In this document: piece after piece, positions 1,093 to 64,000 of the stretch
Layout: every line of letters starts with the position of its first letter
Position numbering within the stretch: position 1 is the first letter of the stretch
From: a phage
Sequence record: PZ445530.1
Reading direction: 5' to 3' (one strand)
Length of the DNA stretch: 64,000 bases
Position numbers and translations under genes: made by a program
Notes under the pieces: model-generated
Told to the model about the DNA's origin: nothing
The model's database searches: none
What the model saw: only the letters and a program-made list of their open reading frames with translations

Positions 1093-3516
1093 ATGAGCAT
1101 GTGGTCGTTCGATTTTGAGTCATCCGGTTTGCTGGAAGACCCAGATCTTTATTATCACTGCGGCCTGTTTAAAGAGCTGAATAAGAACCGTTTTATGCTG
1201 TTCCTTCCTCTGAATGACCGCACACACTACTCCGAGGAGGATATAGAGAAGGCCAAGAACTTTATTCTGGCAAAGAAAACTCTTTATAAGGATTTTGAAG
1301 TTCGCATAGCAGATTTTTCGGAGTTGGAAGGTTGGCTTACAGGAAATTCCGACTGGTCACCAACAGCTTTGAACTGCCATAACTGCTACAGTTATGACTT
1401 TATGCTGATGGAGAGATTATCCGGTATTCATTTTGATATGTTCCGTGATCCTAAATGTATGGGGACTATCAACGACCACCAGGTTAACCTGTTTGATACG
1501 TTGGCGATGAGCCGAATCTTGTGGCCTGATCGCCCTTTACCAAAAGGTTGTCCGGACTCCGTATTCAACCCGGTTACTAAGAAAATGCAGCCTGTTGGTC
1601 CTCACGGCCTTATGGCATGGGGCTACGCCCTTGGTAACCAGAAAGTTCAAATTGATGATTGGCGCGATCTTCCGTTGTGGAAGTATGTGGATCGTGTATT
1701 CGAGGACGTTATCATCCAGGAGCTACTCTGGAAAGAGCTGGTAGCGGAATCAAAAGGTGTATTCTACGGCAAATCTGACATGCAGAACTTTATGTACGAT
1801 CCTGCCAAAGAGAAGCCGAAAGGGTTCAAGAAGATCACCTGGAAGAACGCATTGCGCCGGGGTATGCTGCAACACTTCCTGATGGAGCTGCAGGCCCGTC
1901 AGGGTGTGTATTTTGACATAGATGGAGCTATTGCTTTACGTGACCGTTGCGATGCGTGGATGAAAGAAATCGCTGATCGTGTTGAACCACAACTGCCTTT
2001 AAAAGAGCTGTCAATGTCTCAGCGGCCCAAGTTCCCTGAAAAGCCGTTTAACCAAGATGGGACAATCTCTAATAATGGTTGGAAATGGTTAAAAGATAAG
2101 CTTGGCTATCCTGTGGACATGAGTGCTTTAGAGTTCAAAGCCCCACCTAAGCGAGCATTTACCTCTACAGGAGATGTCAGTAAGATGGGGATAAAATGGT
2201 GTGAAGAGATGGGCTGCAAAGACCACGATAAGATGGCTGATTTCTTGAGAGGCTATATTAAGGGCACCTCCACACCACAACCTTTACCTAAAGAGCTGAT
2301 GGATCAGGCAATAAGCGATCTGCAGCAGAAGCGAATGCCTGACTGCAAGATACCTATGAAAATCAGCAATCAGGACGATATTAAGCGATACCTGATCAGT
2401 GCTGGTTGGCTTCCGACAATGTGGAGAACTAAGGATGTAACTAAAGACAGCAAGAAGAAAGCTTTACCTGATGCAGATGTTGATGCACGAGTATATGCAT
2501 ATATGGACGAGCTTTTGGAGTCAGAGTATTGTGACCTAATTATCAACTTCTGGAACAAAACTGATGCTAAGTTCCAGACAACCGTGCACAAGTTCCGAAG
2601 CTTTCCTAACTCCGAAAGGATTAAAAAGGAAGTATTCGGGAAAATACGTAGAAAAGCTAGGGCACTTATTACTTCTCCGCAACTGAAAGATACGTTTGGA
2701 CACCTGTGTCCGAATCTTGAAAAATTGAACGGAGAGATGGCTAAAGATATCGTCTTATGGTTATCATTGCGAAACCGCAGATCGGTACTTGATCCAATCA
2801 AGGAGGATAAGGTTGACACTGGTCTTCTTAATCACCCACGTTTGAAGATTGACCATAAGCTTCCTGCTAAAAGCTCTGGATTAACAAACACTTCCAGACA
2901 GAAACACAGTATTTGTGCAAACATGCCTAAACCCTCTCCTAAAGTGGTTATGGGTAAAGAGATGCGTAGCTTGTGGGGTGTTCCTCCAGGATACTTTGAG
3001 ATCGGTATCGACGGGTCCAACTTAGAGCAGCTTATCGGGGCTTGGGGTGCCTTTGAGTTCGACAACGGCCTGTATTACGATGTTGTAAGTAACGGAGACG
3101 CACACCAAAACAATGCTGAGGCATATACAAAAGTAGCAGGCAGAGAGGTGTCCCGTAACGACGGTAAACCTATCACGTATGGGGTTATGTACGGGGCACA
3201 AAAAGATAAAGTTGCAGATATGCTGGACATCTCTCCAGAGTTGGGACAAAGGGTAATCGATGCGCTTTGGGATGCCAACCCTGGTCTTAAGGGCCGTAAA
3301 GAGGATCTGGAGAAATTCTGGGAAGCAACGGGTAAGAAGTTTATCTACTCTTTTGATGGTCATGCCATCTGGACCCGATCTAAACACTCTTTACTTAATG
3401 CATACCAACAGAATGGTGGTGCATCGCTGTGTGACTTGGTTGGGATACTTATGCACCACCAAATGGTGAAGCGTGGGTGGTACGATGAAGGTGTTCGTCG
3501 TATTATCTATTACCAT
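1093..3516 (+). CDS. DNA polymerase family A, exon 1 (3'-5' exonuclease + polymerase motifs A/B)
   Basis: Exo I-like FDFESSG at N-terminus; motif A-like GIDGSNLEQL; motif B-like KPITYGVMYG; ORF stops shortly after, before motif C; SD ggagaa upstream. Confidence 0.8.
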
Positions 3517-4358
3517 AAATAACATTGTGGCTTCGTGCAGTGATGCACGTCGAAAACCTCTTTAATTGACGGGAAGGCTAAGTTGACTTTTACACCTAAA
3601 CATGGTAAAAGCTCAATATGCTAATCCGCAGCGAAGACTAAAGGGGTGTAGTTAAAATGGCTAGATCAGTTGAGTATCACGGATATACCGTGTTTGATGA
3701 TGGAACAATACCTTTATCGAAACGTGATCATACAACAATGTTTTGTTTTGATAATGGTCGAGGTTACCTTTGCGTAACCATGTTCATCGAGGGGAAGCAG
3801 TGCACAAAAGGTGTCCACCACTTGGTTGCTGAATGCTTTGTATCAAACCCTGATCCTGAAAGGCTCACATGGGTGAACCATAAGGACGGAAACAAATACA
3901 ACAATGCATACTGGAACCTTGAATGGACCACCCCTGGTGGAAATATCAAACACGCTTATGATAATGACCTCAGAGTAAGGCCAGTCGGTGAGTATAATGC
4001 CAACGCTGTACTGACCGAGGATGAGGTAACGGAGATTTGCGAACTGTTACAAAGTGGTTTACGACAATGCGAGATTAGGGATCTTGGGTATCCTTATGAG
4101 ACGGTCAGAGCCATAAAGCAAAGAAGACAGTGGAAACATATCTCTAAAAACTACACCTGGTAGTAACGTTCAGAGACTATCGAAAGCATAGCGCCAACAT
4201 AAATTGGTGCGAAGAAGCGAGTAGAGTAGACCAGCAAGTGCGGTCGAAATGGGAGGTGCCTTGGTAACAAGGTAGTGAGATAGTCCGATCCATACAGGAA
4301 ACTGTATGGCTGTGCACGTAATGGTGCGGGGTAGCTTAACGACCTACCTGAACTATTG
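3517..4358 (+). mobile_element. Group I self-splicing intron in DNA polymerase gene, carrying HNH homing endonuclease ORF
   Basis: P-like aattgacgggaagg 3564-3577, Q taatccgcagcgaag 3622-3636, R gttcagagacta 4168-4179, S gagatagtcc 4277-4286; exon 1 ends in U (3516), intron ends in G (4358); joining 3516 to 4359 restores pol motif C (YHDEYQ). Confidence 0.7.
3657..4163 (+). CDS. HNH homing endonuclease (intron-encoded)
   Basis: HNH_3-like VNHKDGNKYNNAYWNLEW motif; sits between intron Q and R elements; SD aaagggg upstream. Confidence 0.8.
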   Translation: MARSVEYHGYTVFDDGTIPLSKRDHTTMFCFDNGRGYLCVTMFIEGKQCTKGVHHLVAECFVSNPDPERLTWVNHKDGNKYNNAYWNLEWTTPGGNIKHAYDNDLRVRPVGEYNANAVLTEDEVTEICELLQSGLRQCEIRDLGYPYETVRAIKQRRQWKHISKNYTW

Positions 4359-4712
4359 GATGAGTACCAACTTCAAGTCCCTGACACACCGAAGTATAAG
4401 ACTGTGTACACCTTCGACACAATTGAAGAATTGGAAGCATTTAAGGCAGAGCAGGAGGCCAAACTTCATGTGTTCGACGGTCATAAGTACAAAAAGGCAC
4501 GCAAGGATGAAAACGGAAACGAAGTGGTTGACAGAGACGGAAACACGGTGTACGATCCTATCTTGAACGATGACGGAAAGCTTGAACTTATCTGGAGTCC
4601 TGTGGGCGAAATGGTGGTACATTGCTTCTGGCAAGCTTCTAAAATGATGGGAGTCCCGTTCCAGATCACAGGTGAATACTTGTGTGGTCGTAATTGGGGT
4701 GATTGTCACTAA
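4359..4712 (+). CDS. DNA polymerase family A, exon 2 (motif C and C-terminus)
   Basis: In-frame continuation after intron; begins DEYQLQV giving HDE motif C at splice junction; ends with terminal His as in family A polymerases; no SD or ATG of its own. Confidence 0.65.
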   Translation, partial: DEYQLQVPDTPKYKTVYTFDTIEELEAFKAEQEAKLHVFDGHKYKKARKDENGNEVVDRDGNTVYDPILNDDGKLELIWSPVGEMVVHCFWQASKMMGVPFQITGEYLCGRNWGDCH

Positions 4713-4761
4713 TGTAAACTATCAACACATGGAAGTGTTGTTGAGCAAAGAGGAGACTTTT

Positions 4762-5046
4762 ATGGTAGTAGAACCAACAAAAACATTTACATCTATGACT
4801 ATCCCTGTTATTATGCAGGTGGAGTGTGTTCAGGTATCTCAAGTGTGGCCTGGTACCAAAATCCCAACAGGGCCTGATTTCTTTCAGGTTGGGAAAGTGT
4901 ACAATGTCTGGAAGGCACCAGATTGTTACCCTTTCATCAAAGATGACCGTGGAATGTTGTGGTATCTTGGAAATGATTTGACACTGCACCTTGGGAATGT
5001 TATTATTGCAGTATTCAGACTTAACAAGAAGGAGACCGATCAATGA
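4762..5046 (+). CDS. hypothetical protein
   Basis: ORF with SD agaggag 7 nt before ATG 4762. Confidence 0.45.
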   Translation: MVVEPTKTFTSMTIPVIMQVECVQVSQVWPGTKIPTGPDFFQVGKVYNVWKAPDCYPFIKDDRGMLWYLGNDLTLHLGNVIIAVFRLNKKETDQ

Positions 5047-61305: not shown

Positions 61306-61380
61306 GCCCTGTTAGCTTAGTGGATAAAGCAGCGGCCTTCTAAGCCGTTGACACTGGTTCGAGTCCAGTACGGGGTGCCA
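61306..61380 (+). tRNA. tRNA-Arg (anticodon TCT)
   Basis: Cloverleaf by hand: acceptor gccctgt/acggggt, T-loop ttcgagt, anticodon loop cttctaa, encoded CCA. Confidence 0.6.
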
Positions 61381-61384
61381 AATT

Positions 61385-61471
61385 GGGGAGTTATCCCGTA
61401 GAGGTAGCGGTGTAGACTGTAAATCTATTGTCATTACGACTCGGGTGGTTCGACTCCACCACTTCCCACCA
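61385..61471 (+). tRNA. tRNA-Tyr (anticodon GTA), class II long variable arm
   Basis: Acceptor ggggagt/acttccc, anticodon loop ctgtaaa, long variable arm, T-loop ttcgact, CCA. Confidence 0.55.
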
Positions 61472-61585
61472 AATTTATAGTTTTAAATGCATAAATCATA
61501 CAGATAATGGCATTGATATTTATCGTCGTTTATACTAGTCACTAACTGCTCGAAAATCAGTGTCATTATCAGTATTGTTTATAAA

Positions 61586-61676
61586 TGAGGGTAGGGAGCA
61601 ATGGTGCTCAAGCGGTCTTGAAAACCGTCCCGTTGAGGATGACTCGATGATGGTTCGATTCCATTACCCTCAGCCA
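61586..61676 (+). tRNA. tRNA-Ser (anticodon TGA), class II
   Basis: Acceptor tgagggt/accctca, anticodon loop cttgaaa, long variable arm, T-loop ttcgatt, CCA. Confidence 0.5.
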
Positions 61677-61774
61677 TATTGTTGACCTTGTAATTAAGCG
61701 AAAGCCGGAAGCAGAACCGGATTATCAAATGTTACAGTCGTCATCGCCGACTAGCAACATGGTCAACATACTGA

Positions 61775-61871
61775 GCTAGGTAAGCCCTTTGGCAAGGGCG
61801 AGGATTTTTAATCCTGAAAATAGACGAGGTAGTCGTTGAATACATAGGTGGTTCGATTCCATCACCTAGCA
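61775..61871 (+). ncRNA. Aberrant tRNA-like element (97 nt)
   Basis: Acceptor gctaggt/acctagc and T-arm ggtgg-ttcgatt-ccatc are canonical, but anticodon arm folds as aggat-tttta-atcct (5-nt loop) with about 30-nt extra arm. Confidence 0.3.
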
Positions 61872-61879
61872 CCTTTTTT

Positions 61880-61955
61880 GCTGATGTAGCACAATTGGTA
61901 GTGCAATTGATTTGTAATCAATAGGTTGCAGGTTCAAGTCCTGCCATCAGCACCA
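61880..61955 (+). tRNA. tRNA-Thr (anticodon TGT)
   Basis: Acceptor gctgatg/catcagc, anticodon stem attga/tcaat with loop tttgtaa, T-loop ttcaagt, CCA. Confidence 0.6.
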
Positions 61956-61956
61956 T

Positions 61957-62031
61957 GGCCCTGTAGCTGGAAGGTTCAAGCAAGCGACTCATAATCGCCA
62001 GACGGTGGTTCAATTCCACCCAGGGCCACCA
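61957..62031 (+). tRNA. tRNA-Met or Ile2 (anticodon CAT)
   Basis: Acceptor ggccctg/cagggcc, anticodon loop ctcataa, T-loop ttcaatt, CCA. Confidence 0.6.
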
Positions 62032-62043
62032 AATAATAAATAC

Positions 62044-62119
62044 TCCGCGTAGCTCAGCTTGGTAGAGCGCCTGATTTGGGATCAGGAGGTCGAGTGTTCG
62101 AATCACTCCGTGGAGACCA
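62044..62119 (+). tRNA. tRNA-Pro (anticodon TGG)
   Basis: Acceptor ctccgcg/cgtggag, anticodon stem cctga/tcagg with loop tttggga, T-loop ttcgaat, CCA. Confidence 0.6.
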
Positions 62120-62939: not shown

Positions 62940-63223
62940 GAGTTGCTACACTGGTTATTGTGTGCTTGTTATTATGTGGGTGTGCAACCAACGTTGAGAG
63001 AGAATACAAGATTGACCCTCCGGATGTAGGAAGGTTGATTGTTAAACCCCCGGAAGGTGCCATGAAACCACCTGCTAAAGCTATGCCTTTGAAGAAAGGT
63101 GCGCCAGATGCAGTGAATTCTGGCATTATGAGGGATAATAATCTGTCTTGTAGCAATGATAGAGCTAAATTGATCATTTTGCAAGACTATATTAGAACAC
63201 TGTTTCCAAAGGAGAGCGGTTAA
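62936..63223 (+). CDS. o-spanin (Rz1-like lipoprotein)
   Basis: Lipoprotein signal with LLLCGCA lipobox-like cysteines; Pro-rich mature part; start overlaps i-spanin stop. Confidence 0.6.
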   Translation: MRVATLVIVCLLLCGCATNVEREYKIDPPDVGRLIVKPPEGAMKPPAKAMPLKKGAPDAVNSGIMRDNNLSCSNDRAKLIILQDYIRTLFPKESG

Positions 63224-63648
63224 TGTCTAAGATTTACGGACCGTGTTCTGAAAAGCAGAAGATGATCCTCGAAAACGATGCAGATATTTTGGTAATCGGC
63301 GGTGCCGCAGGGTCTGGCAAGTCGTTCCTCTTGCAATTGATGCCACTTAAAATTATTGATGACCCCCACAGCTCTGTGGTTATGTTCCGAAGAACAACCC
63401 CGCAGTTGGAAGGTGAGGGTGGACTATGGCCTAAAGCGGTAGCTATTTATAGTGATCTGCCTGAAAACATTAAGCCAAAGTTCAGAGAGAAGGATCATAA
63501 GTTCATTTTTCCACGGTTTGATCCGAACACTGGCAAGTGGGATAGAAGCAAAAAGGGAGCTGTTGTAAAATACTGCCACATGGAGTATGTACAAGATAAG
63601 CTTAACCATCAAGGGCTTGAGTACACCATGGTTTGCTTCGATGAGGGT
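63223..63648 (+). CDS. Terminase large subunit, exon 1 (ATPase N-terminus)
   Basis: Walker A VIGGAAGSGKS; Walker B MVCFDEG at exon end; stop codon lies inside group I intron. Confidence 0.7.
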
Positions 63649-64000
63649 TAATTTGTAGCTCTCGTAAAACCTCCCTAATTGCGGGGAAATCTTTACTATT
63701 AATACCACCAACCTGTCATGGTAACATGATAGAGGCTTCGAAGAGAGATCGAAGGTATGGTAACAGTGTGTTAATTTAGATAATCCGCAGCGAAGCATCC
63801 GAGAGGATGAACGTTCAACGACTAGTCGAAAGACGTAGAATCAAGCGATTCGAAACGGGAGGATAAGCGGTTGTTGTCGCTTATAAGATATAGTCTGGTC
63901 TGCATGGAGACATGCAGCTGCCTGAAAATGGCGGGGCAAGACTAGCGACCTTGCCCGAACATAAACGACACAATTCGAATGGGAGCAGATAGACTATCTG
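63649..64000 (+). mobile_element. Group I intron interrupting terminase large subunit (3' end beyond window)
   Basis: P aattgcggggaaa 63677-63689, Q taatccgcagcgaag 63781-63795 (identical 15-mer to pol intron), R gttcaacgacta 63813-63824, S aagatatagtc 63885-63895; no long ORF inside. Confidence 0.65.

Follow-up and report, generated by a model that had tools for sequence, protein, structure and literature searches.

The polymerase ORF of this phage stops inside a catalytic motif, and the question raised by the locus is what the 842 nt that follow the break represent: a self-splicing intron, a cassette between the two parts of a split gene, an intron in decay, or an element removed at the protein level. 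The window, meaning here the whole stretch of 64,000 nt analyzed (record PZ445530.1), comes from an rV5-like E. coli phage (Vequintavirus). Its region 3000-4800 is 98.4% identical to that of Escherichia phage AlexBoehm (Bas56) and shares 91-98% identity with 116 other records, nearly all of them rV5-like Vequintavirus coliphages. An earlier note on this DNA had read positions 3517-4358 as an 842-nt group I intron carrying a gene for an HNH homing endonuclease. We reach the same reading, with a probability of roughly 0.93: the segment is a mobile, self-splicing, IA2-like group I intron, inserted in an essential family A polymerase gene at the H/DE of motif C (a slash marks the insertion site throughout). 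Direct results cover its exact boundaries, a conserved RNA structure with covariation, a reading frame that is restored by joining the exons, the family of the endonuclease, and a presence/absence polymorphism among near-identical phages.

Interruption and Restoration of the Polymerase Frame

Downstream of a DnaB-like primase/helicase (12-1034), the polymerase gene begins with exon 1 (1093..3516, 808 codons), which ends in RRIIYYH and forms part of an ORF extending from 1093 to 3522. The exons, the intron, its helices and the endonuclease gene all lie on the plus strand. The stop at 3522 reported in the earlier note was indeed found: the ORF ends in RRIIYYHK and is closed by a TAA at 3520-3522, the polymerase being interrupted at T3516/A3517. 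Exon 1 matched Pfam DNA_pol_A, phrog_17 and phrog_8888, and aligned to T7 gp5. Exon 2 (4359..4712, 117 codons plus stop) starts with DEYQLQV; when searched alone against Pfam, it gave no match.

The position of this stop bears on a first alternative, that of an intein or another in-frame element acting at the protein level. An intein-like insertion that keeps the frame does exist at another place in this polymerase gene in related phages. This explanation is nevertheless rejected here, because the polymerase frame stops one codon into the insert; moreover, the endonuclease ORF has its own ATG at 3657, past the in-frame stop.

The intron reading, by contrast, restores a complete enzyme. Joining 3516 to 4359 produced an open frame of 925 aa that reads RRIIYYH/DEYQLQV across the junction and terminates in GDCH before the stop codon, which recovers both the HDE of motif C and the C-terminal His, as had been claimed. 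The spliced junction is expected to read ...TATTACCAT/GATGAGTACC..., and the peptide spanning it ...IIYYHDEYQLQVPDTPK. The Pfam DNA_pol_A match was extended from profile positions 137-261 in the unspliced protein to 137-348 in the spliced one (31.8 bits for a cut-off of 34.3), while in PHROGs positions 1-185 of phrog_8888 were matched by exon 1 and positions 186-295 by exon 2. Residues 468-658 of T7 gp5 aligned to the spliced protein (E 7e-16), motif B (SRNDGKPITYGVMYGA) included, and this alignment crosses the junction, with YYHDEYQL on T7 wvHDEiqv (motif C). The spliced, T7 gp5-like palm/fingers domain contains both motif B (R..K......YG) and motif C (HDE) of family A polymerases. The alignment of the 925-aa product to a family A enzyme, called for in the earlier note, was thus obtained, and it corrects that note on one point: the intron does not fall between motifs B and C, but interrupts motif C, separating its His from the catalytic Asp-Glu.

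A second alternative is that of a genuinely split polymerase, in which an endonuclease cassette would separate two ORFs that are translated independently and form a two-piece enzyme without splicing. Such an arrangement has a precedent in the NrdA of Aeromonas phage Aeh1, split by mobE, and two separate polymerase CDSs are annotated in many GenBank records. The start of exon 2 is of particular relevance here, as it had been described as devoid of an ATG and of a Shine-Dalgarno sequence of its own. An in-frame TTG at 4356 does precede exon 2 and is used by mechanical ORF callers, which qualifies that description; its other part holds, since no Shine-Dalgarno-like sequence was seen by eye before this TTG. 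A break located between the His and the Asp-Glu of a catalytic motif also speaks against two independently translated pieces.

Boundaries Defined by Intron-Less Alleles

Comparison with related phages fixed the limits of the intron (3517..4358), which starts with AAAUAAC, ends with CUAUUG and has G4358 as its omega-G. Among 117 related records, this region falls into length classes: full length (30 records, with intron and ORF), about 514 or about 566 nt shorter, and exactly 842 nt shorter. Six alleles from the shortest class, those of nimi, CarlMeissner, DrSchubert, ECP26, S127 and Murica, were compared with the window. They lack exactly 3517-4358, and no other register fits. All six end exon 1 with the same ...TATTACCAT/ and read ...ATTTATTACCAT/GA(C/T)GA..., and their polymerase is annotated as continuous. 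Because precisely 842 nt are missing from these alleles, T3516 is the last base of exon 1 and the 3516/4359 junction is fixed. When compared by eye, the C-terminal ~140 residues of the contiguous polymerase of nimi were the same as those of the spliced product of the window.

In the two intermediate classes, about 514 and about 566 nt shorter, the intron is devoid of the ORF and measures 328-329 nt and 276 nt, respectively. Besides the 30 records that have both intron and ORF, roughly half of the 117 are intron-less, as estimated from sampling every other record, and the remainder carry an ORF-less intron. Among phages that are more than 95% identical, the element is found in some and missing from others, always at one and the same site.

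RNA Family and Core Elements

The search with a group I covariance model suggested in the earlier note gave a match to RF00028 (Rfam group I) at 3507-4308, which spans the entire model (positions 1-253) with 39.1 bits and a local E of 3e-8. This score lies below the gathering cut-off of 50 bits, the intron having been found by a local E-value search, and it is sub-threshold because a 510-nt ORF insertion sits in P6 in the alignment. Where this intron is free of the ORF, as in SYGMH1, JLBYU08, rV5, 24-2-1 and Vibrio phage K460, its score rises to 64.7-91.2 bits. The four core elements were found with canonical group I sequences where the earlier note had located them, namely P (AATTGACGGGAAGG, 3564-3577), Q (TAATCCGCAGCGAAG, 3622-3636), R (GTTCAGAGACTA, 4168-4179) and S (GAGATAGTCC, 4277-4286). 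As a separate observation, Rfam at its gathering threshold reports only a different intron in the window, at 63639-63917.

Secondary Structure and Covariation

A structure running from P1 to P9.2, including P5/5a/5b, P6/6a/6b, P7.1, P7.2, P9.1 and P9.2, was drawn up manually on the window sequence, so that the P1-P9 fold and splice sites proposed earlier could indeed be accommodated. It was then confronted with 14 homologous introns, taken from eight phage groups and aligned with their ORF loops masked. On these homologs, 94.6% of cells pair, versus 36-40% in controls slid by 1-3 columns, a difference that is inflated because the window sequence itself served to build the model. Counts of compensatory changes are less affected by this bias, and double changes were observed at 38 of the 73 pairs, versus 4-12 in the slid controls. 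None of 500 shuffles reached the observed values. In P2, P8, P9.2 and P7.2, most or all of the positions covary, and covariation also supports the conserved P3-P8 core with its P3/P7 pseudoknot.

At the 5' splice site, P1 (3513..3530) pairs CCAU/AA (3513-3518) with an internal guide, UUGUGG (3525-3530). Its six pairs form in all 14 homologs and the U3516·G3527 wobble at the splice site is invariant; such near-invariance is expected, as the helix contains coding sequence. A terminal G was present at every homologous intron 3' end inspected, as at that of the present intron. From the sequence, a guide for P10 is proposed at 3523..3526 (CAUU), whose partner would be GAUG at the beginning of exon 2 (4359-4362). 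Position +3 of exon 2 is a T in all eight intron-bearing Vequintavirus alleles and a C in five of the six intron-less ones, and this T would provide the U-A pair that completes P10, a helix of only 4 bp that is weaker in some homologs, e.g., SPA01 and K460.

Further into the intron, the P2 hairpin CGUGCA-GUGA-UGCACG (3534..3549) showed double changes at 6/6 pairs, with 100% of cells paired. The 5' strand of P3 (3556..3562) pairs with GGGAGGU (4251-4257), and three of its pairs are double-changed, for instance from C-G to U-A in seven of the 14 sequences. P4 (3567-3573 with 3625-3630, from the Rfam alignment) encloses an extended P5/P5a/P5b arm, within a span (3564..3630) that holds P and Q; two of its pairs are double-changed, and one pair was misaligned by MAFFT in SSE121-type sequences, owing to a bulged base. 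The 5' strands of P6, P6a and P6b (3631..3653) face their 3' strands at 4149..4169. For P5a/P5b and P6a/P6b, only the proximal pairs were counted in the covariation test, 70-86% of them being paired; these values are lower because neither the length nor the register of the arms is constant from one lineage to another.

On the 3' side, the 5' strand of P7 (4173..4179, G-A-GACUA with a bulged A) pairs with UAGUCC (4281-4286), the two strands corresponding to the R and S elements; all six pairs form in 100% of cells and two are double-changed. It is followed by P7.1 (4191-4210) and P7.2 (4229-4245), peripheral helices characteristic of subgroup IA that together span 4191..4245, with double changes at 4/7 and 3/4 pairs, respectively. 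The P8 hairpin GCCUUG-GUAA-CAAGGU (4258..4273) is double-changed at 5/6 pairs. Finally, P9 (4290-4309), P9.1 (4314-4327) and P9.2 (4330-4348), which occupy 4290..4348, pair in 98.6-100% of cells, with four, two and three double-changed pairs. Subgroup IA2 is defined by extra helices P7.1 and P7.2, joined by G-U-A, between the 5' strand of P7 and P3' (PMC3428280). Both helices are present here, and the linker GAGUAGAGUAG that joins them contains GUA; on these grounds, we place the intron in or near IA2.

These structural data weigh on the split-gene explanation: outside the ORF, the insert amounts to 335 nt, which adopt a covarying group I fold and match RF00028, and a simple cassette needs neither. 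The persistence of ORF-less inserts at the very same site also counts against it. We consequently regard a two-piece polymerase as very improbable, and retain the group I intron.

That the intron could have decayed, splicing inefficiently and leaving an impaired polymerase or a defective genome, was also considered. The homing-cycle theory predicts decay of introns and endonucleases after fixation, and the sub-threshold Rfam score of the window might be taken as a sign of it. The low score is, however, accounted for by the 510-nt insertion, and all the core helices are intact in the window. The non-ORF core is moreover the same as in the viable isolate AlexBoehm (100% identity) and shares 97-99.7% identity with its counterparts in many other cultured phages, and the HNH ORF is intact as well (see below). 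Decay is thus highly unlikely, and a functional intron is the reading that we pursue.

The Intron-Encoded Endonuclease

An I-HmuI-like HNH homing endonuclease gene of 168 aa (3657..4163) is looped out of P6, between Q and R. This agrees with the earlier description of an HNH homing endonuclease ORF at this place. Its assignment to HNH rests on phrog_59 (E 6.5e-38) and on I-HmuI (PDB 1U3E, E 4.4e-6), with the catalytic motif aligned as vHhLVA...vnHkDGNkyNN..NLeW; the narrower label of HNH_3 type fared less well, the match to Pfam HNH_3 being weak (17.7 bits for a cut-off of 24.8). The ORF is 95-100% identical to the copies found in other isolates, and 100% identical to that of AlexBoehm.

Just upstream of the ATG, the purine-rich GGGGUGUAGUU (3643-3653) is likely to be the ribosome-binding site of the endonuclease. 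This element pairs with 4149-4158 to form P6b, a 10-bp helix, and a mini-construct folds likewise (z = -3.05). The 3' strands of P6b, P6a and P6 overlap the last codons of the HNH ORF and its stop codon, and in Av-05 the P6b helix is kept through a compensatory change from G-C to A-U that involves a synonymous codon change. Sequestration of the putative ribosome-binding site in P6b probably limits translation of the endonuclease. Sequestered initiation regions are indeed typical of intron endonuclease genes (PMC3428280).

Proposed Mechanism

From a functional point of view, we infer catalysis, the activity and target of the endonuclease, and homing from the features described above. The transcript would fold into the P1-P9.2 core and splice, as its structure and the precedents discussed below suggest. 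An external guanosine would attack after U3516, which its wobble with G3527 positions in P1. The free 3'-OH of exon 1 would then attack after the terminal G4358, possibly aided by the short P10 (CAUU with GAUG), and ligation of the exons would yield the mRNA for the 925-aa polymerase. Translation of an unspliced transcript would stop at the TAA and give a product deprived of the Asp and Glu of motif C. During mixed infection, the HNH endonuclease would probably nick or cut intron-less polymerase alleles near the insertion site, and recombinational repair may then copy the intron, together with some adjacent exon sequence, into these alleles (homing).

Distribution, Cargo Variation and Exon-2 Haplotypes

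Homologous introns were found at the same YH/DE position in Avunavirus (Av-05, 24-2-1), Seunavirus (SSE121, PVP-SE1) and Certrevirus (phiTE, CB7, CR9), as well as in phage A5-4, Aeromonas phage 4L372D, Pseudomonas phage SPA01 and Vibrio phage K460. The genera with an intron at this site thus extend beyond rV5-like phages to Plateaulakevirus (Aeromonas) and Pakpunavirus (Pseudomonas). The cargo of these introns varies. Some copies contain the I-HmuI-like HNH gene in P6; those of phiTE, CB7 and 4L372D contain an unrelated HNH gene that starts in the P5 loop; PVP-SE1 has a LAGLIDADG enzyme after the 5' strand of P7; and other copies are free of cargo.

In Vequintavirus, exon 2 opens with the 12 nt GATGAGTACCAA in seven of the eight intron-bearing alleles and with GACGAATATCAG in five of the six intron-less ones. 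These haplotypes differ by four synonymous changes, in a surrounding region that is 95-98% identical. A hybrid allele, that of JLBYU08, shares only the T at +3 among the four. The other three differences would fit co-conversion or immunity of the endonuclease target. Murica is intron-less and yet has the intron-type exon haplotype, apparently as expected after precise loss of the intron. The allelic states of Vequintavirus therefore comprise the empty site, the intron with its ORF, the ORF-less intron and, in Murica, an apparent precise loss.

A single intron lineage may occupy the identical H/DE boundary across very different phages, possibly including the T7-like PhiI and W31, with repeated exchange of its endonuclease cargo and with all stages of the homing cycle co-circulating in Vequintavirus. 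We give this wider proposal an even chance. If it is true, the homing cycle and target-site immunity could both be studied in these phages as a natural model.

Comparison With Known Systems

The closest known system is the intron of AlexBoehm, whose core and HNH protein are identical to those of the window and which shows no structural difference. In its record (MZ501048), the polymerase is a two-piece joined CDS around a "putative homing endonuclease". For the Vequintavirus genomes of the BASEL collection, comparative genomics was used to place the intron boundaries (Maffei et al., 2021; PMC8594841), while the 2013 paper on the rV5 genome mentions terminase introns only (PMC3606486); an RNA structure or a group I classification for the present intron was not found in either of these two papers. 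Since the rV5 record (DQ832317) lists a truncated polymerase plus hypothetical ORFs, many records are still mis-annotated.

Splicing has been demonstrated in a close relative. The HNH-containing polymerase introns of Pectobacterium phage CB7 (Vequintavirinae: Certrevirus) were shown by RT-PCR and Sanger sequencing to be spliced in infected cells (Buttimer et al., 2020; PMC7344957). One of these introns, between CB7_51 and CB7_49 and also present in phiTE, interrupts the polymerase at the same site (RRIIYYH/DEYQLEV). It is 687 nt long, and its core, which starts with AAGUAACAUUGUGGC..., is homologous to that of the window and about 75% identical to it. The cargo differs: this intron has an HNH gene of the phiTE_007/CB7_50 type, which extends from its start in the P5 loop across Q and P6. 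An HNH-containing insertion of the same phage, CB7_245, did not splice (PMC7344957), which can be cited in favor of a split gene; splicing of the CB7 ortholog itself argues in the opposite direction.

The finding is thus real and correct, but already known, because the intron is annotated in near-identical phages and splicing has a precedent in a close relative. It leaves current concepts unchanged, and adds one more group I intron to those that target, within an essential phage gene, the catalytic codons that are most conserved. Its residual value concerns the annotations to be corrected and the way in which the allelic states are distributed in the population. Most rV5-like records list a truncated polymerase and "hypothetical proteins" where the correct product is the spliced 925-aa enzyme, and the exact 3516/4359 junction, together with the validated structure, allows these records to be corrected. 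The co-circulating allelic states constitute a convenient system for the study of homing.

More distant parallels come from two sets of phages. In the summary of Kong et al. (2012; PMC3428280), the introns of the T7-like phages PhiI and W31 are IA2 introns that self-splice in vitro and are located at position 881 in the numbering of E. coli Pol I. The host phages of these introns (sequences AY769989 and AY769990) are podoviruses with T7-type polymerases. We take position 881 to be the His of motif C (H881-D882-E883), so that the PhiI/W31 site would be the same H/DE. The resemblance extends to the architecture summarized for these introns (Bonocora and Shub, 2004): IA2 introns with P7.1/P7.2, an HNH ORF in P6a (e.g., I-TslI) and a sequestered ribosome-binding site. 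The introns of SPO1, SP82 and Bastille, which encode I-HmuI, I-HmuII and I-BasI, are also group I introns in a family A polymerase, but they occupy a different site, which lies in the fingers subdomain (position 674 of E. coli numbering; PMC3428280), and their hosts are Gram-positive bacteria. The endonuclease of the window is nevertheless related to I-HmuI, which is encoded in the polymerase intron of SPO1 and acts as a nicking homing endonuclease.

Endonuclease cargo and exon-2 haplotype of the polymerase intron

Introns homologous to the polymerase intron occupy the identical H|DE site in other phages, and both their endonuclease genes and the loops hosting these genes vary between phages. 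A LAGLIDADG endonuclease, placed after the 5' strand of P7, is encoded in PVP-SE1 (L014, 1692-2285), and a second HNH type is found in phiTE (L010, 453-836), in Aeromonas phage 4L372D (L013, 923-1315) and in the H|DE intron of CB7. In these last three, the ORF starts in the P5 loop and continues through the Q element (ATGGGTAATCAGCAGG). The intron of rV5 (L002, DQ832317, 2018-2293; Rfam score 64.7 bits) is a divergent, ORF-less version of 276 nt; its P5 is short, its P8 is long, and the record annotates a truncated polymerase and hypothetical ORFs 225-227 over it.

When window 4359-4379 was set against L001, L017-L021 and further loci, the presence of the intron was tracked by a four-site synonymous haplotype in the 12 nt that open exon 2; these read GATGAGTACCAA in intron-bearing alleles and GACGAATATCAG in intron-less ones. 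Position +3 fits P10 pairing, and the remaining three sites may reflect co-conversion or immunity of the endonuclease target. The haplotype of JLBYU08, whose intron is ORF-less, is a hybrid. Murica has no intron, yet carries the haplotype of the intron type, a combination which may stem from precise intron loss. It should be noted that 16 records labeled "Campylobacter phage" (MG0656xx) are 95-96% identical to rV5-like coliphages across the intron region; these probably represent wrong labels or contaminated samples.

Other insertions in the polymerase gene

A 969-nt in-frame insertion was found in polymerase exon 1 of VB-EcoM-WM (L022), 241Ecol014PP (L023) and YP-6 (L024), between ...SNGDAH and (Q/C)NNA..., at a point equivalent to window ~3105. 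In VB-EcoM-WM, the sole one of the three to be translated, it starts with CYSGDTQIL, ends with ...VAVCGN|C and looks like an intein. A further HNH-containing intron lies within the polymerase gene of CB7 (L025, 2757-3471) and phiTE, at the equivalent of window ~3190; CB7_51 is the middle exon of the CB7 polymerase, starting at MYGAQ, equivalent to motif B. The window polymerase lacks the 969-nt insertion and has no insertion at the motif B site (~3190).

A second intron, in the terminase gene

Toward the end of the window lies a cluster of five tRNA genes (61306-62116, plus strand), one of which (61775-61871) is a long and weak match of 35.5 bits. The large terminase gene (host ORF 63223-63651) is split by another group I intron, which matches RF00028 with 84.3 bits at 63639-63917 and continues toward the window end and beyond; the split comes directly after ...MVCFDEG, read as a Walker B-type motif. 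Its Q-P6-R segment (63781-63819, TAATCCGCAGCGAAGCATCCGAGAGGATGAACGTTCAAC) is near-identical to the P6 region in the polymerase introns of SYGMH1 and JLBYU08, where no ORF is present, and this suggests a common origin of, or past recombination between, the terminase and polymerase introns. Introns in this same terminase gene have been described for rV5 (PMC3606486).
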